From: Ostreococcus lucimarinus
Lineage: Eukaryota
Strand: one strand, 5' to 3'
NCBI GenBank assembly: GCA_000092065.1
Contig: CP000582.1
Length of the DNA: 64,000 nt
Shown here: positions 1 through 12,047 of the stretch, piece by piece
Layout of the letters: each line of letters begins with the position of its first letter
Numbering within the stretch: the first letter of the stretch is position 1
Notes under the pieces: model-generated
Told to the model about the DNA's origin: nothing
The model's input: the letters and a program-made list of their open reading frames with translations, nothing else
The model's database searches: none
Translations under genes and position numbers: made by a program

Positions 1-3000
1 CGCGCGTTGTCGGATTTGCCCGTCGAGGCGGTGGTGCAACATGCGTCGCGCGCGCTCGAACGCGTCTGCGAACTTCTCTCGGCGTCTGAGCCACGACTGT
101 GCACTCTGGAGACTCGACGAGAGGCGTTGAGCGTCGTTAGGCAGTGCGCGCAGGCGCTGCACAGAGAGTTGATTGACGTTTCTCGAGAGTGCTTGCTGAC
201 GGTGGATGGGACGCCCGTCAGAGCGACGGGAAAAGTGGCGCGCCCGCAGTCGCCGAACTCACCGATCGCCGAAAACTTTCCACCGAGCGAGCGAGGGCAC
301 GGATATGGCGCGTCTCGAGGAGCACCGACGCGCGTACTTCCGATCGCGCACGCGTTTATGCTACACGTGATTCCCGCAGTGTGCGATCCTGCTCTTCGAG
401 CGAGCGCTATCCGAGCGGTGCGCCTTCTGTTGCCGCTCGTTCAAATCGACCCTACGAACAAGGATGCTCAGCCACACGGCGATGCGTTGATGCGTCTCGG
501 GCAGTATCTCGATTTGTGGGAGTCGTCGTTGGCGACGATTGAGTTTGAATCGGGCGCCGCAAGCGAGTATCTCACGTGCGTTCAAGTAAGCGCGGAAGTA
601 GCTGCAGTGGCGAGCGGTGCACCGATCCGAGGTGCTGGTGCGGCGCACAAGAGACTGTCCTCACGCTGGTACGATGTCTGCGTCGACGAAGTCATCGCCG
701 CGGCGAATCCGTTGGCTCGGCAATACTGTGCGCAAGCGCTCGTGCACATATGCCCAACGCTTTCTCTTGATATTTCACTCGTGCGAGACGCAGACCAGTG
801 TCTGCGCATCGCGATGTCGGCGGCGGTTTCTGGTTTAGACGCTAAATCATTCGCACGTATCGTCAGCAAGGCGACACCGGCTTTGAGTATCATGGGCGCG
901 ACTGATAATGTGACGCCGTTTTGCTCAAGCATGACCGCGAAGCTCGTCGCACTCGCCTCTACGAGCGAATCAGCAGACGATCTCGATGAGGTTGTCAGCG
1001 CGATGCTTGCATTACTGTCACATGGCATCGATGACGTTCGGACGTCTGCTTACGCCACACTCGCTACAGCAAGCTCGCCGCACACCGCGGCGAGAGCCAT
1101 TCTCGAGCACTCTACGATCATCGGAGAACTCATCGTCGGCGGTTTGAACCATTCGTCCACCGTTCGGAATGCGGCTTTGTGCTTGGAATCATTATGCAAT
1201 TCGACCTTGAATCGGCGCGCAGTCGCGACCCAGGTTTCGCTCTACTCCGCCTGGATTGAAGCTCTCATCGACGATGCAGACGCTGGACATGCGGCGAGAG
1301 AAGCGCAAAAGATGATTCAAGAAGCGAACGTAGGCGGACGATTAAGCAAACTTGCGCCTCTATTGCGCGGGTTGTTTCACGAAAGCGAGAAAGTTCGTGT
1401 GCGGAGTGCGACCGATTTAGCGTACGGTATAGCGCACGGACTCAGCTCGGCAGCGCAAGTTCTCCTGGCGTCTCACGACGATCCTTTCGATTCTGTCTTA
1501 CTCACGGATGACGAGTACGTGCGTCAAGAAGACGCGGACTCGCGCGTTGTGGCGTTCAAAGAGAGTCTGCGGTTGAGAACGTTTGACGATGTGCGCGCTT
1601 GTTTGAGACGTTTCATCTTCGATGACGCGAAACACCGTGACCAGCTCCTTGCCGAGCTAGAAATCATGATGAGAGACGAGAGACTCGCGACTGTTCTCGC
1701 CGACCCGAGTTTGCTCGAGTCATTGATAAAGTTAACGCTCGATCAGGGTTCGCATGTGAACGTCGTGGCCGGCGCGCTGCGAATTCTTGCTGCTGCGATC
1801 GGGGCATCGACTCTGGTTCGCGATATTTTGAGCCGCGAAGATGGGCGAGGTGGAAGAGTCACGCAATTGCTCGGACTCGTGTTCCATCCTCAGCGTCGGA
1901 TTCGGGAGGCGATGGCGTCGCTTCTCGCGTACTTTCTGTTTTCCCCTGTCTGTGAGACCGTCACGGCGCGCGTGGGTGCGGTAAAAACGCCCGATTTGAG
2001 CCTTCCAAAGCTTTTCCTGGAGACCTACAGGTTTCCTCAGTTCGTTCCCGAGCTCGAGAGCCCGCCGGCGGTTGGCGATACCGATCCATTGATGACGGAT
2101 GTTGTCGACCGAAATCGAGTTTTGTACATGTTTAAGCGTCGTCAAACACTCATGTACACGTACGACGCGGTCGACGACGATGAATCTGCGCTCCTCGCGT
2201 TTGCGCTGGATGAAGAGGCAGAAACAGAAAGTGGCGAGCTGCGCGTGATGCGCGACGCCGCTCGAATTTCTTGCGCGCCGGTCGTCATTGGAAATCTAGT
2301 CAGTGCCCTTGGTGAAGCTCAATCGTACGAAGAAGCGATGAGAATCGTCGACGCTTTGATGACAAACGTCCAATCCACTCGTTTAAACGCCATGGCTTTT
2401 TTAGCATCTCTAGGACGATGGGACGAAACGAGTGAGCGATTCATTCGGCGCCCGCCGCGGTCGACTACTGACATTTCATTATGGGTTGGGATGGCTGAAG
2501 TTCTTACATCGTGCTTAGAGTCATTCATGCGCGTGGAAGATAGTATTCTCCCTCCTTTGGCGATGAAAAAAATGATCGAAGTCGTCCATGACGTCATAGT
2601 TCCGCTCGCGAGTGCAGGCGCGGCGCTGAGCGTCAGCTGCGACGGTGATATGTTACGCGACCCACCAGTGCTTAGACATCCTATCGCGGCTGGTAAAGCA
2701 CTCGGTGACGATGGTGGCGCTTTTTGCGCGGCGCGCGCAGACGCTGTACGTGCGGCGATGAGCTTGCTTGCGAACGTGTACGAAGCAGCGAGGAGATTTA
2801 GAATTTATGCGGTACCCGACGTTGACGCGGAAGCCGTGGTGGCAGAACTTCTCGATATCGATTGCGTCGGCGTGGTGACAAACACGTTAGTCGGAGAGCC
2901 AAGTTGCGACTACACGGCTAGGTGTGTCGCCATCGATGCCGTGAATGCGGCGCTGCGTCTCGGAGGGGTTCCATCCGAAGACATCTTCAACCTGGTTCAG

Positions 3001-5496
3001 TCGATGTTAACGAGGGTGTATCCGTCATACTCGTCCTCGGATCATCGCGGCTCTGTACTCATGAACAAGGCGACGCGTGTTTTACTGCTCATTATGGACA
3101 GTTCTAGATCTGATAAATGGGCCGACGGTTTCTATGAAATCGACGACTTGGTTTGGTTGAGTGACATGCTTGTCGATGCGTCTTCTCGCGCACGTGAGAG
3201 GGCATGGCAAATCGTAGCGGCATCCGTAGGACCAAGCTCTCCAATCGCGGACGTTATCGCCGCCAAATTCCCTGACATCTTCGAGCGTGCAACGGCATGT
3301 GCACTTGACAAAGAAGAGGCGGCGGTGACGCGCGCCGCAGCGTTCCGATGCGTCGCCGCGCTCATCGCGGGAAGCTTTGCGCAGGAAGTTTCACTGGAAA
3401 TTCCAGACGACGGCTTCTATTCGGGGGAGAAGTCCTCCGTGCCGTTCCCATCGATCCCGATGCTCGCCGCAAAGGACGTGTGGCGAGACTTTGCCAGAGT
3501 ACTTATGGATGATGTGAGTGGTGACGATGAACGTGTTGCTGTTTTGCATCGCGGCGCCTCTTCAGCGCTGCTCGCCGCCGCGCGCGTCGACGCGCTCGGC
3601 ATCGCTGAAGCGTTTGACTTTAATCCCAGTCATGAGACGGATGGCACGATGTGGCACGGTACTTTCGCAGTCTTGCGAAGGACCAAGTTTGTCGGCTACG
3701 GTTCCACCGATGCGGCCGCGGCTGCATCGAATGTAGCCGCTCTGTTAGGCGTCATGGTCGTCGCCGGTGTGACGAGCTTTGACGTCAAACTCGCAGCGTC
3801 GGCGTTATACGATTGCCTGCGTAACGCTTCGCGCACCTTGCGCTCTGGCGGCGGTGGTGCAGCTGCCCGAGCGGCGTCCAGATGTGCCGAGGCGCTCGCA
3901 ACTGTATTACAAGCCCACTCGCACGGCGATGAAGACGTGTTCCCGTCTCACGGCGTCGCGGCGATGTGCGCAGAAATTCTCGCCAACGCGGTCGGGCCGA
4001 GTGCGAGTCCAGAATGCATCAAAGCTTCCGTTGGCGCGTGTCTGCTTACATCCACAGTATTCCGATCGAAATCGACCTCCGAGCGCGCCATCGATGGCGC
4101 TTTTGAACACGTTGGAGCGTCGATATTACAATCACTACTTGTCCTGTGGCACTTCCGCTTGCTCGGTAACTCAACGCAACAACGCTCGGTCCCGACAATG
4201 TCTATCATTATCAGCGCCACGCGGAACGTGCTCGCGCACGACGTCAGCGCAAAAGCCGCGGCTTGTGAGTGGGGTCTAGTAAGCAGTTTAGTTCAGACGA
4301 CCGTCGCGGCGGTGCGACGTTCAATGAGTCCGGATGGATCGTTCAAGAGCGTGCCCACCGCCATGGACGTCTACGTCGCTTCCTCGGCGATGAGGGCGAA
4401 TCGTAGGGATGCCCTCGCTGCCGCCATGGAATTCGGACTCGATGCCGATGGGAAAGAACTACCATCAACCGTCGCCCTCGGATCCCTCACGTGCTTGCGA
4501 CATATGATGTACTCTTTTCCGACGAGCACAAGCGACGACGCTTGGCTAGAGGAAATCGTCAACGAAATCCGCGAAAACGCCGTGGATTCGGGCATCGTGG
4601 ACATGTTCCGGACGACTTGGCCGTACGCAACGCTCGATCAGACGGTGATGTACGAGTTACTGTCCCTCGTGGTGAACTTTGTCGCCAAATGTCCGAACTC
4701 GAAACGGGCAATCACCGCCGTCGGCGCCGGCGAGGATGGCGAACAACCCAAATCCTTCGCGCAACGTTTGATGGATCACGCTTTTGACTCCAAGCACGCC
4801 CCTGGGTCTTCGAGTCTATGCTTGACGTTGAAGGCGTTGTCGTCGCTTGCCACGGTCGAAGGGCCGGCGCGTTATTGGCTCATCCGCTCGTCTTTCGTAG
4901 ACGACGTCGCGCTGACGCTCGCGCACGCGTTGACCAAGGTACGCGCATATGACAGCGACGCCAACGACGTCCCGCGCGCGCGCTGGATGACGACCGTGAC
5001 CGCGTGCGTCCGTGCACTGTGCAACGTAGCGTCGTTCGGCGATGGTCAGCGTGCTGTTTTGCGCGCTAACGCTGGAGCACACGTTTTCGAGCTTTGTCTG
5101 GAAGTCGTCGCCGCCGCCGCGGACCCTAACGACGACGCCCGTCGTGAGACGTTTCTGCTCATGCACAACCTCGCCTTCCACCCAGACGCAAAGTCGCATT
5201 ACGCCGCGAATGAAGTCGCCATCGATTGTCTAGTTCAAGGCGTGCGCGACGAAGATTTACAGTGCGCGTCTGCGTCCTGTGGCGCGCTCTTCGCGCTCAC
5301 GCGAAACGGACAGCGCGTCTGCGCCCTGCTCCGCGAGCGCGGTCGCGATCGCGCTTTGCGCGCTGCTTCCAAGTCTCACGCCGCGAAAACGCCGAACGAC
5401 CCGCGCTCCAAGCACTGGTCCCGATGTCTCCGAGGCATCTTGCTCGTGCTCAGCGCCAACGAAAAAGTCGACGCGTACGACGGCGCGCTTCGATAG
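1..5496 (+). CDS. Large (>1829 aa) alpha-helical repeat (ARM/HEAT-like) protein of unknown function. It is 5'-partial: the ORF is open to the window start.
   Basis: Uninterrupted 5.5 kb ORF in a GC-rich genome, with high GC3 and a TAG stop at 5494-5496. The ORF-track M at position 7 is a TTG, so the true start lies upstream of the window. No confident family assignment. Confidence 0.5.
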   Translation, partial: RALSDLPVEAVVQHASRALERVCELLSASEPRLCTLETRREALSVVRQCAQALHRELIDVSRECLLTVDGTPVRATGKVARPQSPNSPIAENFPPSERGHGYGASRGAPTRVLPIAHAFMLHVIPAVCDPALRASAIRAVRLLLPLVQIDPTNKDAQPHGDALMRLGQYLDLWESSLATIEFESGAASEYLTCVQVSAEVAAVASGAPIRGAGAAHKRLSSRWYDVCVDEVIAAANPLARQYCAQALVHICPTLSLDISLVRDADQCLRIAMSAAVSGLDAKSFARIVSKATPALSIMGATDNVTPFCSSMTAKLVALASTSESADDLDEVVSAMLALLSHGIDDVRTSAYATLATASSPHTAARAILEHSTIIGELIVGGLNHSSTVRNAALCLESLCNSTLNRRAVATQVSLYSAWIEALIDDADAGHAAREAQKMIQEANVGGRLSKLAPLLRGLFHESEKVRVRSATDLAYGIAHGLSSAAQVLLASHDDPFDSVLLTDDEYVRQEDADSRVVAFKESLRLRTFDDVRACLRRFIFDDAKHRDQLLAELEIMMRDERLATVLADPSLLESLIKLTLDQGSHVNVVAGALRILAAAIGASTLVRDILSREDGRGGRVTQLLGLVFHPQRRIREAMASLLAYFLFSPVCETVTARVGAVKTPDLSLPKLFLETYRFPQFVPELESPPAVGDTDPLMTDVVDRNRVLYMFKRRQTLMYTYDAVDDDESALLAFALDEEAETESGELRVMRDAARISCAPVVIGNLVSALGEAQSYEEAMRIVDALMTNVQSTRLNAMAFLASLGRWDETSERFIRRPPRSTTDISLWVGMAEVLTSCLESFMRVEDSILPPLAMKKMIEVVHDVIVPLASAGAALSVSCDGDMLRDPPVLRHPIAAGKALGDDGGAFCAARADAVRAAMSLLANVYEAARRFRIYAVPDVDAEAVVAELLDIDCVGVVTNTLVGEPSCDYTARCVAIDAVNAALRLGGVPSEDIFNLVQSMLTRVYPSYSSSDHRGSVLMNKATRVLLLIMDSSRSDKWADGFYEIDDLVWLSDMLVDASSRARERAWQIVAASVGPSSPIADVIAAKFPDIFERATACALDKEEAAVTRAAAFRCVAALIAGSFAQEVSLEIPDDGFYSGEKSSVPFPSIPMLAAKDVWRDFARVLMDDVSGDDERVAVLHRGASSALLAAARVDALGIAEAFDFNPSHETDGTMWHGTFAVLRRTKFVGYGSTDAAAAASNVAALLGVMVVAGVTSFDVKLAASALYDCLRNASRTLRSGGGGAAARAASRCAEALATVLQAHSHGDEDVFPSHGVAAMCAEILANAVGPSASPECIKASVGACLLTSTVFRSKSTSERAIDGAFEHVGASILQSLLVLWHFRLLGNSTQQRSVPTMSIIISATRNVLAHDVSAKAAACEWGLVSSLVQTTVAAVRRSMSPDGSFKSVPTAMDVYVASSAMRANRRDALAAAMEFGLDADGKELPSTVALGSLTCLRHMMYSFPTSTSDDAWLEEIVNEIRENAVDSGIVDMFRTTWPYATLDQTVMYELLSLVVNFVAKCPNSKRAITAVGAGEDGEQPKSFAQRLMDHAFDSKHAPGSSSLCLTLKALSSLATVEGPARYWLIRSSFVDDVALTLAHALTKVRAYDSDANDVPRARWMTTVTACVRALCNVASFGDGQRAVLRANAGAHVFELCLEVVAAAADPNDDARRETFLLMHNLAFHPDAKSHYAANEVAIDCLVQGVRDEDLQCASASCGALFALTRNGQRVCALLRERGRDRALRAASKSHAAKTPNDPRSKHWSRCLRGILLVLSANEKVDAYDGALR

Positions 5497-5574: not shown

Positions 5575-6111
5575 CTACGACTCCGAGCTCCCTCCCCCGA
5601 ACACCTCCAAAAACGTCTTCCCCGTCGCCTCCCGACTCGTCCTCGCCGCGACCTCGCTCGCCGCGTCCGCCGGCCCTCGTCCCGTCGCCCGCACCGTCCT
5701 CCGCCCCATCGCCTCCCCCGGCATCGGTATCACGCTCCCGCTCGCCAGTCGCCCCCTCGACACCCGCACCTTCGTTCCGTCGTCCAAAAACATCCGCGTC
5801 ACTCGCACCGGGTGTCCATTCGCCGGATCCGCGAGCGCCACGCTCGAGTACCGCAGCGCCGCCTCCCTCGCGACGATCTGCCCCGGCGTCTCCCCGTCCC
5901 CCCTCGCGTGCTTCTTCACCAGATTCACCCCCGTGACGTACACCAACGACCTCTCTCGGTCCACCTCGCGCACGACGCCCGTCTGCCCCCGATCGCGCCC
6001 GCGCGTGACGACGACGCGATCGCCGCGGTAGATGTTCCACGACGAATCCGCGATCGCGTTTCTCGCCAGTCGCTTGAGCTTGTGCGCCGCCTTGCGGAAC
6101 GGTTGCGACAT
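5575..6111 (-). CDS. Organellar (probably mitochondrial) ribosomal protein uL24 with a KOW domain.
   Basis: ATG at 6109-6111. The core GDRVVVTRGRDRGQTGVV...GVNLVKKH...GQIVAREAALRYSSVAL...VRVTRMFLDDGTKVRVSR matches bacterial-type L24. A 26-aa basic amphipathic N-terminal extension and a C-terminal extension are present. Confidence 0.75.
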   Translation of the reverse strand: MSQPFRKAAHKLKRLARNAIADSSWNIYRGDRVVVTRGRDRGQTGVVREVDRERSLVYVTGVNLVKKHARGDGETPGQIVAREAALRYSSVALADPANGHPVRVTRMFLDDGTKVRVSRGRLASGSVIPMPGEAMGRRTVRATGRGPADAASEVAARTSREATGKTFLEVFGGGSSES

Positions 6112-6239
6112 GGCGCGTTGGCGCCGCGCGTTCGCGGTCGCGACGGCGCGACGCGCGGCGTCGGCGACGATTCGCGCGCGCGATTGTGCGGCGCCGACGC
6201 GCGGCGTCGGGAATTCGCCAGAGCGCGACGCGTCGCGCG

Positions 6240-9143
6240 ATGGCGCGCGCGCGCGCGCGGTGGACGACGCGCGCGGCGCTCGCGCTGGCGCTGCTCGCGC
6301 TGTCGGCGCCGCGACGCGCGTCGAGCGCGGACGCGAGGGGGGAATCGACGAGACGCGTCGGAGATTCGCGCGCGCGCGGAAGACCGCTCGTCGTCGTGTC
6401 GCTGGACGGCGTCGTGCGCGCGCTGGACGCGGACACGGGCGATAACGTGTGGGCGTTCGACTCGGGAGGCGCGCTCGCGGGGGCGTCGTGGACGAGCGCG
6501 GGCGAGGACGCGCGGGCGCTGACGCCGCGGAGCGCGGCGAGCGGGACGCGAACGCGAAACGTGTTCCCGGGCGTCGACGGCGCGCTGTACGCGCATCACG
6601 TCGATCAGGACGCGAAACACGTCGTGCGGAGGTTGCCGGTGACGACGCGGGAGCTGGTGGAGGCGAGCCCGAGCGCGACGCGAGACGGGGCGCTGGTGGT
6701 GGGACGACGGTCGTCGACGATTTACGCGCTGCGCGCGAGCACGGGGGCGCTGGTGCGGAGCGTGGACGTCGATGGGACGATCACGAGCGTGATGGGAGGC
6801 GACGCGATGAACGGGGCGGACGAGGAGTTGATTTACGTCGGGCGCACGGAGTACGTGGTGCGGAGCGTGGACGCGGAGACGGGCGAGGAGCGATGGAACG
6901 TGACGCACGGCGAGTTGCGAAGTCTGAGTCGAGACTCGGACACGGGCGCGCTGCGCATAGGAACGGATCGCGCGAGCGATGCGGGATCGCTCGTGATCGG
7001 GCCAGGAAACGTGGTTCGAAGCGTGGACGAGGAAACGGGGGAGATTAAGTGGTCAAAGCGAATGGCGTCGTTGCCTTTGGGCGTGAGCGACGCGAGCGGG
7101 CGCGTCATCGTGGAGAACGCGGCGCAGATTCCAGCCGAAAGCGACGATAAAATTATTGTCGGCACGCACGAGAGAGGATTGTTCGCGCTTCCGTACACCG
7201 CCAGTGCGGGCGAAGGTTTACGAGACGGATCCGACAGCTCGAACGCCCTCGTCGCCGCGAGCGAAAGCGAAGACTTCGTTCGCGTCGATATAGGGAGCGA
7301 CGAGGACGATTGGTCGTGCATTCCTGAAGATTTGGTCAAGGCGACGCTCGATAAGACTTCGTCGAGGTTACCGGGTTCGAGAACGTCGCGACGAGCGCTC
7401 AACGTGCTGCTCGTCGGCGGCTTGTCCATCGTCTTCGTGTACTTGACGCAATTGAAGAGGCGAAATATAGAGGTCCACGACGTGAACGCACCGTCGAGCG
7501 TGGTGACAGGAGTAGAGGATGCAGAACAAGAGCATCAACGCACCGCTGCGGCGAAAAAACGAGCGAAAAAGCGGGCGAAACAAGCCGAAGCGCGAGCCGC
7601 TGAGGCGGAGCTCGCGGCGAAGATTCAGGAAGTCATGGAAGAAAAGACGCGCGAGGAAACGCGAGTCGGGCGCTTGCGCATTAAACCATCCGTGCTGGGA
7701 TACGGCTCGTGCGGTACGATCGTGTTCGAAGGCGAGCTGGATGGACGGCGCGTCGCGGTGAAGCGCTTGCTGGCGCAGTTTCACGAACTTGCGCGCAAGG
7801 AGCTTCAGGCTCTCATCGCCTCAGACGAGCACCCGAATATTTTGAGATGCTTTGCGCTCGAGGAAGACTCGAACTTCGTGTATATGGCGCTTGAGCTCTG
7901 CGCGTCGTCACTCGCTCGCGTCGTCGATCCTGTCGGGGCGGCGAACGAGAGCGAATCGTCCGCGGCGGAGACGAACGCGAAAGCGTTAAACATCAAATGC
8001 ATCGACGAGGCGACAAAGTATCCGACGGCAGAGTGCTTAAGAATTCTACACGACGTCGTCGCGGGTTTGGCCGCACTCCACGGGCAAGGCATCATTCATC
8101 GCGATTTGAAACCACAAAACGTCTTGATAACGTCGTCTGGACGAGGGAAAATCGCCGACATGGGACTCGCCAAGCGCGTGAACGTGTCCGAGGGAACGTC
8201 TTTTTACACGCACACGAACGGAAATTTGAACGTCAACGACGCGGCGGGCACGTCGGGTTGGCAAGCCCCCGAGCGATTGACGCAGGGGCGTCAATCGCGC
8301 TCTGTCGACGTCTTCAGTCTCGGTTGCTTGATGTACTACTGTCTCACGGGTGGTGCTCACCCGTTCGGTGAGAGGCTCCAGCGCGACGCCAATGTCGTCG
8401 CAAACAGCTACGACGTGTCCAAGCTGAAGTATTTCCCCGAAGCCGAGGCTTTGGTGAAGGCGTGCATCGACGCCGATCCATCCAAACGACCGTCGGCGAC
8501 GGAAATCTTGGCGCACCCGATGTGGTGGGACGCCGAGAAGAAGCTTCAGTTCCTTATCGATGCCTCGGACCGAGTCGAACTAGAAGATCGCATGAGCGAT
8601 CGATCGTTGCTGCGCGCGTTCGAGACGCGCGCGAAGTCCTCGATCGCGTGCGATGACTGGACCAAAAAGCTCGACGCCGCGTTGCTCGAAAATCTTGGGC
8701 GATACCGCGAGTACGACGGAACTTCTCTGCGCGACTTGCTTCGAGTCATACGCAACAAGGCGAATCACTACCGTGAGCTTCCTCCCAAGCTCCAACGCAC
8801 GCTTGGGTCGTATCCAGACGGCTTGTGGCGATACGTTTCCATCCGATTCCCCGCCCTGCTCCTCGGCGTGCGCGATTTCTTCGCCCCCTCGGCGGCGCGA
8901 GAACCCACCCTCGCGAAGTATTTCCTCAGCATCGATGCCGCGTCGAAAGCTTCATTCGCTCCACCGCTGGCGCGCGCCGAGTCCATCCCCGACAAGCCCT
9001 TAATAGCCCCCCAAGTCTTCCCGAGCCGTCCCGGCCGCGAGCCGTGCGAATTCTACATGAAAACTGGCCGCTGCAAGTTCGGCGCCACGTGCAAGTTCGA
9101 TCATCCTCAAGGCGTGCACTGGGACGTTCACAACGAACGATGA
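6240..9143 (+). CDS. IRE1: Serine/threonine kinase and endoribonuclease IRE1 (ER stress sensor), with a C-terminal CCCH zinc finger.
   Basis: Signal/TM segment (ALALALLALSAP) and a beta-propeller-like luminal domain, then a TM segment (LLVGGLSIVFVYL). The kinase carries GSCGTIVFEG, VAVKRLL, HRDLKPQNVLI and DMGLAK. The KEN/RNase domain carries WDAEKKLQFL...LRDLLRVIRNKANHYRELP. The C-terminus is CEFYMKTGRCKFGATCKFDH (C-x8-C-x5-C-x3-H). The ORF-track start at 6186 is GTG; the first ATG is 6240. Confidence 0.85.
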   Translation: MARARARWTTRAALALALLALSAPRRASSADARGESTRRVGDSRARGRPLVVVSLDGVVRALDADTGDNVWAFDSGGALAGASWTSAGEDARALTPRSAASGTRTRNVFPGVDGALYAHHVDQDAKHVVRRLPVTTRELVEASPSATRDGALVVGRRSSTIYALRASTGALVRSVDVDGTITSVMGGDAMNGADEELIYVGRTEYVVRSVDAETGEERWNVTHGELRSLSRDSDTGALRIGTDRASDAGSLVIGPGNVVRSVDEETGEIKWSKRMASLPLGVSDASGRVIVENAAQIPAESDDKIIVGTHERGLFALPYTASAGEGLRDGSDSSNALVAASESEDFVRVDIGSDEDDWSCIPEDLVKATLDKTSSRLPGSRTSRRALNVLLVGGLSIVFVYLTQLKRRNIEVHDVNAPSSVVTGVEDAEQEHQRTAAAKKRAKKRAKQAEARAAEAELAAKIQEVMEEKTREETRVGRLRIKPSVLGYGSCGTIVFEGELDGRRVAVKRLLAQFHELARKELQALIASDEHPNILRCFALEEDSNFVYMALELCASSLARVVDPVGAANESESSAAETNAKALNIKCIDEATKYPTAECLRILHDVVAGLAALHGQGIIHRDLKPQNVLITSSGRGKIADMGLAKRVNVSEGTSFYTHTNGNLNVNDAAGTSGWQAPERLTQGRQSRSVDVFSLGCLMYYCLTGGAHPFGERLQRDANVVANSYDVSKLKYFPEAEALVKACIDADPSKRPSATEILAHPMWWDAEKKLQFLIDASDRVELEDRMSDRSLLRAFETRAKSSIACDDWTKKLDAALLENLGRYREYDGTSLRDLLRVIRNKANHYRELPPKLQRTLGSYPDGLWRYVSIRFPALLLGVRDFFAPSAAREPTLAKYFLSIDAASKASFAPPLARAESIPDKPLIAPQVFPSRPGREPCEFYMKTGRCKFGATCKFDHPQGVHWDVHNER

Positions 9144-9216
9144 CACGACGACCGATCCATTTATTTCCACGCGCTCAGCTCGCCGTGCGCGCGCTGTGTA
9201 ACTTCAGACCACTTCT

Positions 9217-9252
9217 CAAACCAAATCAAACCAAACCAAACCACACCAAACC
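9217..9252. repeat. (CAAAC)n-like microsatellite in the IRE1 3' / MinD 5' intergenic region.
   Basis: The sequence caaaccaaatcaaaccaaaccaaaccacaccaaacc is seen directly. Confidence 0.8.
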
Positions 9253-9480
9253 GCCAGGGCGCGCCGAGGATCGGGCCGAGCCGAACCCATCGCGCCGCAC
9301 ACCACGACGCTCGCGAACGCACGTCTCGCGGAAACTCGCCGATCGCGACGCACGAACGCGCTCGATCGTACGAACGCTCGACGCACCGCGCACGTCCTCG
9401 CGAGGCGCCGCGAACCGCGACGATCGCGAGTCGTTATTTCAAACCGAGATCGACAGATACCGAAAGCTTGATCGCCACGA

Positions 9481-10467
9481 ATGATGTCGCAAACAGCCGT
9501 GCGCGCCGCGCACACGAGCGGTGTTCGCGCGAGAAACGTGCGTAAGACGTCTGGGTGCGCGGCCGCGACGCGAGGGACGGTGAAGCGCGCGGAAAGTGGA
9601 CGCAGAGGGGCGACGGCGCGACGAGCGAGCGGCGCGAGCGAGACGCCGACTGGGGACGGCGATGCGCAAGTCGTCGTCGTGACCTCCGGGAAGGGTGGCG
9701 TCGGGAAAACGACGTCGAGTGCGAATCTTGGGATGAGCATGGCGCGTTTGGGGTATCGCGTGGCGCTCATCGATGCGGATATCGGATTGCGTAATCTCGA
9801 CTTGTTGCTCGGGTTGGAAAATCGAGTGATGTACACGGCGATGGAGGTGCTGGAGGGTGAGTGCCGGATGGAACAGGCATTGATTCGCGACAAACGGTGG
9901 CGCACGTTGGCGTTGTTGCCGATTTCGAAGAACCGAGCGAGGTATAACGTGACGAAGAACAACATGCAGACGCTCATCAAGGTGTTGAAGGAGATGGAGT
10001 TTCAATACATCATCATCGATTGCCCGGCTGGGATCGATGTGGGTTTCATCAACGCCATCGCGTGTGCGGACAGCGCTGTTATTGTGACGACGCCGGAAAT
10101 CACGGCCATTCGTGATGCCGATCGCGTGGCTGGGTTGTTGGAGGCTAACGGCGTGTACGACGTCAAGCTCTTGGTAAATCGCGTGCGAGCGGATATGATC
10201 AAAAAGAACGACATGATGAGCGTGAAGGACGTGCAGGAGATGCTCGGCGTGCCGCTTCTTGGCGCGATTCCGGAAGACACGGAAGTCATCGTGAGCACGA
10301 ACAGAGGGGAGCCGCTTGTGTTGAAGAAGAAGCTCACCTTGGCGGGCATCGCGTACGAAAACGCCGCGAGACGCATCTCTGGCAAGAGTGATTTCCTCAT
10401 CGATCTCGACAAGCCGAAGAAGGGCTTATTCCAACGCGTGGGCGAGTTCTTCGCGGGCGACGAATAA
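9481..10467 (+). CDS. MIND: Plastid division site-determining ATPase MinD, nuclear-encoded with a transit peptide.
   Basis: The S/T/R/A-rich N-terminus is followed by VVVVTSGKGGVGKTT, a deviant Walker A motif. MinD homology runs to the C-terminus (DVGFINAI...LLVNRVR...). Confidence 0.9.
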   Translation: MMSQTAVRAAHTSGVRARNVRKTSGCAAATRGTVKRAESGRRGATARRASGASETPTGDGDAQVVVVTSGKGGVGKTTSSANLGMSMARLGYRVALIDADIGLRNLDLLLGLENRVMYTAMEVLEGECRMEQALIRDKRWRTLALLPISKNRARYNVTKNNMQTLIKVLKEMEFQYIIIDCPAGIDVGFINAIACADSAVIVTTPEITAIRDADRVAGLLEANGVYDVKLLVNRVRADMIKKNDMMSVKDVQEMLGVPLLGAIPEDTEVIVSTNRGEPLVLKKKLTLAGIAYENAARRISGKSDFLIDLDKPKKGLFQRVGEFFAGDE

Positions 10468-10547: not shown

Positions 10548-11687
10548 TCAGCGCCCGACGTCAAACTTACACACGCAGTCGTAAAGCTCACCGTCTAAAA
10601 GCTCCGCGACTTCCAAGTGCTTCACCATACCGAGCTTCAAGGCGTCTATTTTTACGAACTTGGCCCATAAATTCGTCTCGATGCCGCGTCCCATGCCCTC
10701 GAGCACGAGCAAATCGCAAGTCTCAGCTTCGGCGCACGCCTCGGCGGACAAGTACCTCAGGTCGATCACCGGCATGTCGCTCCCCGACGACACGACACGC
10801 ATGCGCTTTCCCACGATCGCATCGCGCAGTACGCTATCGCCCATCTCGAGCAAAGCTGGAATTATTTGTTCACGCATCTCGAGAGCGGTGACGTCGTTGA
10901 TCGAAGGCGTCTCGTTCGCCGCGACGACGACTTCGGTGCCTCGTCGAAGCAGTTCGCGAATGAACGGAATCATCCCCAAGCACACGTCTGCACCAGCGTT
11001 GTCGACGAACACGATCGCCTTCGCGTGCGTCTTCGTCGCGAATCGCGCTCGCAGCGCGTCGAAATCGTCGACGCACCACGGTCGCGGCTTCAATCCGTTC
11101 ACCGTCGACGCAAAGTCCACGCCGTCGGTGTCGTATAAATCCGCGCTCGACGCCGCGCCCAAATCAAATATATTTCCCGCGAACACTCCTCGCACGAGCG
11201 CCAAAAGCCGTTCGCCGTCGTCCTCGATCCCGTCCGTCGCCGCCAGCGCGCCCGCCAGCGCTCGCAGCGCCGTCGCGTTCTCCGCCGCCTTCACGCCGCG
11301 AAAGCAATCCGCGAATCCGCATCGCCGTAAAATCCCATCGCGCGCGCGGCACATCTCCAAGCAATTCACCCCCTCCCACGGCGCCCACCACGCGCCGCCG
11401 CTCGCCTCGCCTCGACACGCCTCGCGCGCGTCCTCGTCCCCCGCCTCGCACCGCGCGCACGCCGCCTCGAACGCCCGCGCGAACGCCCGCGCGCGCGCCG
11501 TCGCGCCGTCGCCCGACGCCTCGTCCAGCGCCGCTCGGCGCTCGAACGACGCCGCGGACGCGCGAAAGACGCCGACCCACGCGCGGCGCTGCGCGTCCGT
11601 CGTCCACGGCGCGAACGTCACGGGCGCGTACGTCGCGTCGAGCCACGGGAACGCGACGGGCGCGCCGGAAGACTCGCGCGCGGGCAT
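10548..11687 (-). CDS. DUF89 / ARMT1-like damage-control phosphatase family protein.
   Basis: Contains KAIVFVDNAGADVCLGMIPFIRELL...LVLEGMGRG, the DUF89 hallmarks. Start is chosen at the ATG at 11685-11687 (MPARESS...). The longer ORF to 12047 is probably a GC-rich read-through that overlaps psaE exon 1. Confidence 0.7.
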   Translation of the reverse strand: MPARESSGAPVAFPWLDATYAPVTFAPWTTDAQRRAWVGVFRASAASFERRAALDEASGDGATARARAFARAFEAACARCEAGDEDAREACRGEASGGAWWAPWEGVNCLEMCRARDGILRRCGFADCFRGVKAAENATALRALAGALAATDGIEDDGERLLALVRGVFAGNIFDLGAASSADLYDTDGVDFASTVNGLKPRPWCVDDFDALRARFATKTHAKAIVFVDNAGADVCLGMIPFIRELLRRGTEVVVAANETPSINDVTALEMREQIIPALLEMGDSVLRDAIVGKRMRVVSSGSDMPVIDLRYLSAEACAEAETCDLLVLEGMGRGIETNLWAKFVKIDALKLGMVKHLEVAELLDGELYDCVCKFDVGR

Positions 11688-11991
11688 CGCCGCGCGCGCC
11701 CGCGCGCGTCGGCGAGCGCGGGCGCGCGCGCGCGGGCGCCGCGCGCCGGTCGCGACCGTGGCGACCGACCGCGTGTCCCGCGTGGGGTAAACAGTACCAC
11801 GTGATGTATGGTGACCGAATGTCCGAACATGTACACGTTCACACTGTCTGCGCATACAAAATAAATAAACCGACCCCCCCGATCCGCGCGTACGCGACGC
11901 CGATCGCGCGCCATGAAATCGAACGCGACCCGATCCGTGGACGCCCGTCGTCGCCCGCGCGCGCGTCCGCACACAAGCACGCACGCGCACG

Positions 11992-12047
11992 ATGTTCGCG
12001 ATGTCCACGATGCAAACCGCCGCGGCGCGCGCCGTTTTCGTCTCCAA
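11992..12047 (+). CDS. psaE: psaE exon 1 (photosystem I subunit IV precursor; transit-peptide start, MFAMSTMQTAAARAVFVS + 2 nt).
   Basis: ATG at 11992. The donor CAA|GTGCGTCGCG lies at 12048. The exon ends in phase 2 and joins exon 2 to give an AAG (K) codon. Confidence 0.55.

Follow-up and report, generated by a model that had tools for sequence, protein, structure and literature searches.

A conserved C-terminal CCCH zinc finger in the IRE1 of Ostreococcus lucimarinus, a putative RNA docking module

IRE1 of Ostreococcus lucimarinus continues past its KEN RNase domain into a CCCH zinc finger, which is real, well conserved and already known. The gene lies in the window analysed here (a stretch of 64,000 nucleotides from contig CP000582.1, assembly GCA_000092065.1) and is, judged by its sequence, the IRE1 orthologue of Ostreococcus, an ER-membrane stress sensor. 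MinD, encoded in the same window, is 94% identical to its O. tauri counterpart, which fits an Ostreococcus other than O. tauri. As the fusion of KEN and CCCH is common to green algae and has been published, this is a typical gene of an established kind, carrying a conserved trait of chlorophyte IRE1. Since the fusion itself is not new, the value of this protein resides in the putative function of its finger rather than in discovery. We propose, with a probability of roughly 0.6, that this is a chlorophyte-type IRE1 whose finger would act as a flexibly tethered docking module for single-stranded RNA, serving either bZIP mRNA splicing or regulated IRE1-dependent decay (RIDD).

The protein is encoded by a single open reading frame of 967 aa, which opens with an ATG at 6240, closes with a TGA at 9141–9143 and has no internal stop (Table 1). 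An identical protein occurs in public metagenome collections, where its cluster, named IRE1 by JGI, counts 152 members. The IRE1 layout that the earlier note had read from the sequence, with luminal, transmembrane, kinase and KEN parts, is borne out by Pfam matches above their cutoffs, namely PQQ_2 (aa 56–292; 44.6 bits, cutoff 27.6), Pkinase (aa 485–761; 143 bits) and Ribonuc_2-5A/KEN (PF06479, aa 768–895; 123 bits), and by one hydrophobic segment of transmembrane type, the only one in the whole protein. Its further claim, that a C-x8-C-x5-C-x3-H finger shares this frame, also stands. At the C-terminus, zf-CCCH (PF00642) matches aa 931–957 with 41.7 bits (cutoff 20.5, E 1e-10), or 46.6 bits when the tail is scanned by itself, and there is no stop between KEN and the CCCH segment in the genomic frame.

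Table 1. Features of the Ostreococcus IRE1 gene, with positions in the window
Feature	Position	Strand	Basis
Full-length IRE1 CDS, 967 aa + TGA	6240..9143	+	One exon as read from genomic sequence
Putative signal peptide (MARARARWTTRAALALALLALSAPRRASSAD)	6240..6332	+	By eye from sequence
Luminal PQQ-like beta-propeller repeats (stress-sensing domain)	6405..7115	+	PF13360
Lone transmembrane helix, aa 387–405	7398..7454	+	Kyte-Doolittle 19-residue mean 1.9
Basic K/R box, cytosolic juxtamembrane linker, aa 436–461	7545..7622	+	Sequence
Ser/Thr protein kinase domain with VAVK(508), HRD(620–622), DMG(640–642)	7692..8522	+	Pfam, alignment
KEN / Ribonuc_2-5A endoribonuclease domain	8541..8924	+	Pfam, alignment
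Linker from KEN to finger, aa 896–930, ~35 aa	8925..9029	+	AF2 pLDDT
CCCH zinc finger, C-x8-C-x5-C-x3-H	9030..9110, core 9045–9104	+	Pfam, AF2
C-terminal tail GVHWDVHNER + stop codon	9111..9143	+	Sequence

The alignments show the catalytic residues of both the kinase and the RNase to be intact. The kinase motifs VAVK, HRDLKP and DMG are all present, and in the KEN domain Y825, R838, N839 and H843 are retained, with RYREY...RNKANH aligned to RYRKY...RNKYHH of yeast Ire1, where the counterparts are Y1043, R1056, N1057 and H1061. Yeast Ire1 (3fbv) aligns across aa 477–885 (E 8e-91) with the RNase Y, R, N and H kept. The predicted AF2 model (pTM 0.77) shows the IRE1 fold in the kinase-RNase part, matching the IRE1 crystal structures 7bmk, 3lj0 and 3fbv with E ~1e-32 and with target-normalised Foldseek TM-scores of 0.85–0.9 against solved IRE1 structures. 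RNase L, the other family with a KEN domain, is soluble, has N-terminal ankyrin repeats and lacks a luminal domain and a transmembrane helix; membership of that family was rejected, as the Ostreococcus protein has no ankyrin match and possesses both the luminal PQQ-like domain and the helix.

The finger motif itself, CEFYMKTGRCKFGATCKFDH (aa 936–955), is the only CCCH motif in the protein, and is modelled by AF2 with a pLDDT of 81–87. The linker that precedes it, where pLDDT falls below 50 at aa ~899–923 and both length and sequence differ widely among orthologues, is probably flexible. The finger, the best conserved part of the protein, keeps 56–89% identity among orthologues, at least as much as the kinase and KEN domains, as measured by per-region amino-acid identity, the relatives being either >99% identical or saturated for dN/dS. 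Conservation extends into the C-terminal tail, where an HPxG(V/L)H motif is common to other Mamiellales-like orthologues.

Fusions of the same kind are found across the green algae. A search with the KEN and finger profile covered 1.84 billion representatives, and among its best 150 matches, partly swamped by multi-CCCH proteins, true fusions were picked by a regular expression demanding CCCH downstream of the KEN catalytic motif. Among the matches listed, KEN is followed by one to three fingers in at least ~60 distinct tail sequences, with at least 25 single-finger and at least 35 tandem-finger tails, including ~35 further 50%-identity cluster representatives. Named carriers are Volvox and Chlamydomonas eustigma in the Chlorophyceae, Trebouxia and Auxenochlorella in the Trebouxiophyceae, and Caulerpa in the Ulvophyceae, and Micromonas- and Bathycoccus-like metagenome sequences have the fusion too, single-finger tails among them, so that the finger is conserved in four chlorophyte classes. 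One complete MMETSP transcript also holds KEN and CCCH in one product. C. reinhardtii CrIRE1 was absent among the matches to a Volvox tail query, which did recover C. eustigma and other relatives. The earlier note had held the finger to be missing in animals, fungi and land plants, and this agrees with our matches: all named land-plant matches, including a transcript of the hornwort Nothoceros, stop after KEN, as do the PDB chains of yeast and human, and none has a CCCH finger. The novelty that it implied is, however, not supported, given this chlorophyte conservation and a published description (PMC11077094).

That article (2024 NAR, citing Yamaoka et al. 2018, Plant J 94:91, on Chlamydomonas CrIRE1) states that green-algal IRE1 has at least one CCCH finger, missing in land plants, and it already proposes that the algal finger recruits mRNA, the idea that the earlier note had also put forward. 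In the papers covered by our reading, we found no published test of the function of the finger, and a Sci Rep 2016 survey of IRE1-bZIP evolution (PMC4891664) mentions neither algae nor zinc fingers.

Other chlorophyte IRE1 proteins have the same order of parts as that of Ostreococcus, from luminal domain, transmembrane helix, kinase and KEN to a variable linker and C-terminal CCCH finger or fingers, with a homologous finger, PxRPGxxxCxFYxKTGxCKFGxxCxFxHP, in Volvox, C. eustigma, Trebouxia, Auxenochlorella and Caulerpa. When the fingers of these five and of Ostreococcus are aligned, no variation is seen at the P, R, three Cys, His and Pro. The main difference is one of number and spacing: Ostreococcus has one finger behind its ~35-aa linker, whereas in Volvox, Trebouxia, Auxenochlorella and Caulerpa far longer linkers lead to a pair of fingers that are spaced by exactly 41 aa. 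Two small HMMs, built for finger 1 and finger 2 of the tandem forms, score the single finger almost equally (62.4 versus 60.9). CrIRE1 of Chlamydomonas, too, differs from Ostreococcus, as Yamaoka et al. 2018 reportedly describe tandem zinc fingers at its C-terminal end. Membership of the CrIRE1 type nevertheless holds with one finger, because the definition in the literature is 'at least one'. Land-plant IRE1a/IRE1b, yeast Ire1 and human IRE1alpha match the Ostreococcus protein in luminal sensor, transmembrane helix, kinase, KEN, catalytic residues and fold, but end just past KEN and have no CCCH finger.

What the finger might do is suggested by its resemblance to the fingers with which TTP and TIS11d bind RNA. 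The nearest solved relative is TTP (1m9o, E 2.9e-7), and sequence comparison shows that the base-stacking aromatics F947 and F953 are kept; the C-x8-C-x5-C-x3-H spacing and the CKF/CKY and CxF aromatics are common to the Ostreococcus finger and to TTP/TIS11d (PDB 1m9o, 1rgo). TTP/TIS11 proteins differ in that a short spacer of fixed length separates their two fingers and in their (R/K)YKTEL lead-in, while the Ostreococcus finger is single, led in by SRPGREPC and fused to an enzyme. Membership of the TTP/TIS11 family was rejected for this lone finger, which lacks the (R/K)YKTEL lead-in; it may nonetheless work as the TTP/TIS11d fingers do.

In the mechanism that we propose, the finger would be a single-stranded-RNA docking module tethered behind KEN, and docking would enrich substrate mRNA locally around ER clusters of IRE1 before cleavage by KEN, candidate substrates being bZIP1/bZIP60-type mRNA or RIDD targets. 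Docking and then cleavage in two steps would parallel yeast Ire1, in which the [+]-box of the cytosolic linker docks substrate mRNA ahead of RNase cleavage (van Anken et al. 2014, PMC4279078). By this analogy, the [+]-box and the Ostreococcus finger would be alike as non-catalytic elements on the cytosolic side of IRE1, docking being proposed in the case of the finger; the former, however, precedes the kinase and is basic and unstructured, and the latter is a zinc finger that follows the RNase. Ostreococcus also has a K/R box that appears to sit where yeast Ire1 has its [+]-box (PMC4279078).

If the finger does dock RNA, chlorophyte IRE1 would be a naturally occurring RNase whose substrate recognition is extended by an appended RNA-binding module. 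Two ways of bringing mRNA to IRE1 are known, ribosome stalling with SRP in land plants and animals, and the 3' bipartite element with the [+]-box in yeast; docking by the finger would be a third, protein-encoded way of bringing UPR mRNA to the ER sensor. With its tiny genome and lone finger, Ostreococcus offers a minimal system in which to probe the docking idea.

It is less easy to say which RNA would be docked. A single CCCH finger typically touches few nucleotides, so that low affinity or specificity may follow, unless IRE1 oligomerises. A finger that binds RNA could serve RIDD or a general capture of ER-bound mRNA instead of unconventional bZIP splicing, and a short, common motif would indeed fit broad capture better than the recognition of one mRNA; we consider this unlikely, since Chlamydomonas, whose IRE1 bears the finger, splices CrbZIP1 mRNA in an IRE1-dependent manner (PMC11062448; PMC11077094). 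With a similarly small chance of being correct, the finger might be a sequence-specific selector of substrates that has co-evolved with the chlorophyte bZIP mRNA and replaces both the ribosome-stalling/SRP and the yeast 3' bipartite-element routes. Chlamydomonas-type bZIP1 mRNA has twin stem-loops without the canonical CxGxxG motif (PMC11077094), and selection by the finger, if true, would account for the tolerance of such stem-loops. On this reading, how long a motif is recognised would be adjusted, from one algal class to another, by whether there are 1, 2 or 3 fingers.

Some CCCH fingers mediate contacts with proteins, and this, along with the small RNA-binding surface of a single finger and a predicted flexible linker that would allow it to reach neighbouring protomers, is compatible with a protein-interaction or regulatory module involved in IRE1 oligomerisation, autoinhibition of the RNase, or recruitment of tRNA ligase or decay factors. 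We regard such a role as quite improbable: the nearest solved relatives bind single-stranded RNA and the stacking aromatics are kept, the finger and its PxRPG lead-in match plant multi-CCCH proteins (P0061, P0073), and with an RNase as the fusion partner, a role that involves RNA is the simplest reading.

A gene-model artefact, with the finger in a separate downstream gene or cut off by an intron or early polyadenylation so that the protein ends after KEN, is very hard to sustain, as the truncated or frameshifted tails of some metagenome relatives (P0002, P0112, P0122) are single contigs in which another frame of the same DNA is read, suggesting assembly errors, and as the stretch from KEN to the finger is stop-free, KEN and CCCH form one product in annotated models from the intron-containing Volvox, Auxenochlorella, Trebouxia and Caulerpa genomes, and the MMETSP transcript holds both together. 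The same unbroken frame is called in relatives of 90% identity and in other Mamiellales-like contigs. The fusion of KEN to CCCH in one open reading frame is thus confirmed as real and far exceeds chance: a GC3 of 0.71–0.74 runs on in one frame across KEN, linker and finger, while the remaining two frames of the tail contain stops or lose the GC3 signal.

The earlier note read this gene as an IRE1 of canonical layout (luminal domain, transmembrane segment, kinase and KEN domains) with a CCCH zinc finger appended at its C-terminus, and this observation is confirmed, far beyond chance, by the domain matches, the position of the motif and the single hydrophobic segment. On the + strand, the ORF listing places a GTG start at 6186, with the first ATG at 6240 and the TGA at 9141–9143; from the ATG, the ORF encodes 967 aa. 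All domain matches in a Pfam scan of this protein exceeded their curated cutoffs, and the tail C-terminal to KEN, scanned alone against PF00642, scored 46.6 bits.

Features of the IRE1 protein (aa numbering) and of its neighbouring genes (window numbering)
Feature	Position	Strand	Evidence or remark
PQQ_2 (luminal beta-propeller-like repeats)	aa 56–292	+	Pfam 44.6 bits
Sole hydrophobic segment, between luminal and cytosolic parts	aa 387–405	+	sequence analysis
Pkinase	aa 485–761	+	Pfam 143 bits
Ribonuc_2-5A (KEN)	aa 768–895	+	Pfam 123 bits
zf-CCCH PF00642	aa 931–957	+	Pfam 41.7 bits, cutoff 20.5, E 1e-10
CCCH motif CEFYMKTGRCKFGATCKFDH	aa 936–955, nt 9045–9104	+	motif position in ORF
1829-aa ORF, runs in from window start	7–5496	+	no Pfam match
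Organellar-type ribosomal protein L24 (KOW)	5575–6111	-	neighbour of IRE1
Plastid division MinD ATPase	9481–10467	+	94% identical to O. tauri XP_003075230.2
ARMT1-like damage-control phosphatase	10548–12047	-	neighbour of IRE1

The protein is an intact IRE1 in which a conserved, independently folded CCCH finger is tethered behind the RNase. Residues 477–885 match yeast Ire1 (3fbv, E 8e-91), the kinase domain has its Lys, HRD and DMG motifs, and Y825, R838, N839 and H843 (RYREY...RNKANH) align with Y1043, R1056, N1057 and H1061, the catalytic residues of the yeast RNase. An AlphaFold2 model of aa 470–967, built from an alignment of 20 sequences (mean pLDDT 79.8, pTM 0.77), has as its best PDB matches only IRE1 kinase-RNase structures (E about 1e-32, target-normalised TM 0.85–0.9). 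With pLDDT below 50 at aa ~899–923 and 81–87 in the finger region, the model suggests that the finger folds and is held by a flexible linker some 25–35 residues long.

Whether the query was KEN with its tail or the entire cytosolic region, many proteins with both PF06479 and PF00642 were retrieved. All named land-plant IRE1s retrieved have PF06479 without PF00642, which agrees with the absence from land plants presumed in the earlier note, and a transcript of the hornwort Nothoceros ends directly after KEN. A KEN-plus-finger profile, run against 1.84 billion 50%-identity representatives, found at least about 35 further cluster representatives in which one to three CCCH motifs come after the KEN catalytic motif. 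Among all sequences retrieved, distinct tails number 25 with a single finger and 35 with tandem fingers. Counting this Ostreococcus (Mamiellophyceae), carriers of the finger span four chlorophyte classes; the named ones are Volvox and Chlamydomonas eustigma (Chlorophyceae), Trebouxia and Auxenochlorella (Trebouxiophyceae) and Caulerpa (Ulvophyceae). In tandem IRE1s (e.g. the retrieved proteins P0119, P0265, P0286 and P0305) the fingers are spaced exactly 41 residues start to start, or 42 in one case; against this near-fixed spacing, the KEN-to-finger linker of two-finger IRE1s can be anything between about 100 and about 480 residues long.

Yamaoka et al. 2018 reportedly described CrIRE1 as set apart from other IRE1s by a C-terminal tandem zinc-finger domain. 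Green-algal IRE1 is described, in a passage of PMC11077094 citing Yamaoka et al. 2018, as having at least one CCCH finger that is absent in land plants, and the same passage relays a proposed role in mRNA recruitment. On these statements, both the fusion and the functional idea attached to it are therefore already published, so that the domain reading of the earlier note stands and its implied novelty does not. The gene belongs, as a regular single-finger member, to a chlorophyte IRE1-CCCH subfamily that has been described before, and Ostreococcus would be a minimal system in which to probe the function of the finger.

Among solved structures, the finger comes closest to fingers that bind single-stranded RNA, those of tristetraprolin (TTP; 1m9o, E 2.9e-7) and its TIS11-type relatives, and it retains the aromatic residues that follow the second and third cysteines (F947 and F953). 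However, it is not a TTP-family member, since it is single and lacks the TTP lead-in. Its extended signature, PxRPGxxxCxFYxKTGxCKFGxxCKFxHP, recurs in the multi-CCCH proteins P0061 and P0073 from the same searches, a pattern consistent with an origin by domain shuffling. Identity between orthologues is 56–89% in the finger, which makes it no less conserved than the kinase (47–78%) and KEN (48–84%) domains; in the linker it is only 29–60%. Directly after it, at 9111–9140, lies a motif HPxG(V/L)H(W/Y/G), kept in Ostreococcus-, Micromonas- and Bathycoccus-like IRE1s and absent from other chlorophyte tails.

We propose that the finger would dock single-stranded RNA and so help deliver substrate mRNA to IRE1 clusters ahead of cleavage. 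Docking before cleavage has a precedent in yeast, where the element is instead a basic [+]-box in the Ire1 cytosolic linker, on which HAC1 mRNA docks as a prerequisite for RNase action (PMC4279078). Chlamydomonas bZIP1 mRNA is without canonical CxGxxG loops and ribosome stalling (PMC11077094), and there would therefore be room for a finger-based recruitment route. That the finger binds RNA for regulated IRE1-dependent decay instead of splicing seems unlikely, and a role as a protein-interaction or regulatory module somewhat more so. Ostreococcus IRE1 also has a K/R-rich box, AAAKKRAKKRAKQAEARAAEAELAAK (aa 436–461, window 7545–7622), in its juxtamembrane cytosolic linker, at a position equivalent to the yeast box; orthologues of Micromonas-like, Chlorella-like and hornwort type have basic patches there as well.

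A gene-model artefact, with the finger outside the protein that contains KEN, is highly improbable: the 967-aa ORF has no internal stop, and thus none between KEN and finger. Coding-type third-position GC (0.71–0.74) runs unbroken in one frame across KEN, linker and finger, while in the tail the two alternative frames are broken by stops or no longer show this signal. Public assemblies contain the exact protein; the full-length members of its 90%-identity cluster (152 members, JGI name IRE1) differ by 5–8 residues, 1–3 of them in the tail. More distant Mamiellales-like orthologues, among them one of 993 aa with 60–81% identity per region as well as Micromonas-like and Bathycoccus-like sequences, have the same finger in a continuous ORF. 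KEN is likewise followed by CCCH in annotated proteins of Volvox reticuliferus, Auxenochlorella protothecoides (XP_011396430.1), Trebouxia sp. (KAL3141813.1) and Caulerpa lentillifera, and by three fingers in P0278, a complete MMETSP transcript.

The translations of four close metagenome relatives (P0002, P0112, P0027 and P0122) depart from the IRE1 frame within or after KEN; the tail of P0002 is the +1-frame ORF at window 8825–9484, and P0112 returns to frame further on. Errors of assembly or gene calling in single contigs are the probable cause.

Among the neighbours, L24, MinD and the ARMT1-like phosphatase have no evident link to IRE1; the match of MinD to O. tauri identifies the organism as an Ostreococcus. 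The 1829-aa ORF, without Pfam matches at E <= 0.001, may be a large helical-repeat-type protein. Intergenic gaps around IRE1 are about 130–340 bp, a dense packing as expected for Ostreococcus.
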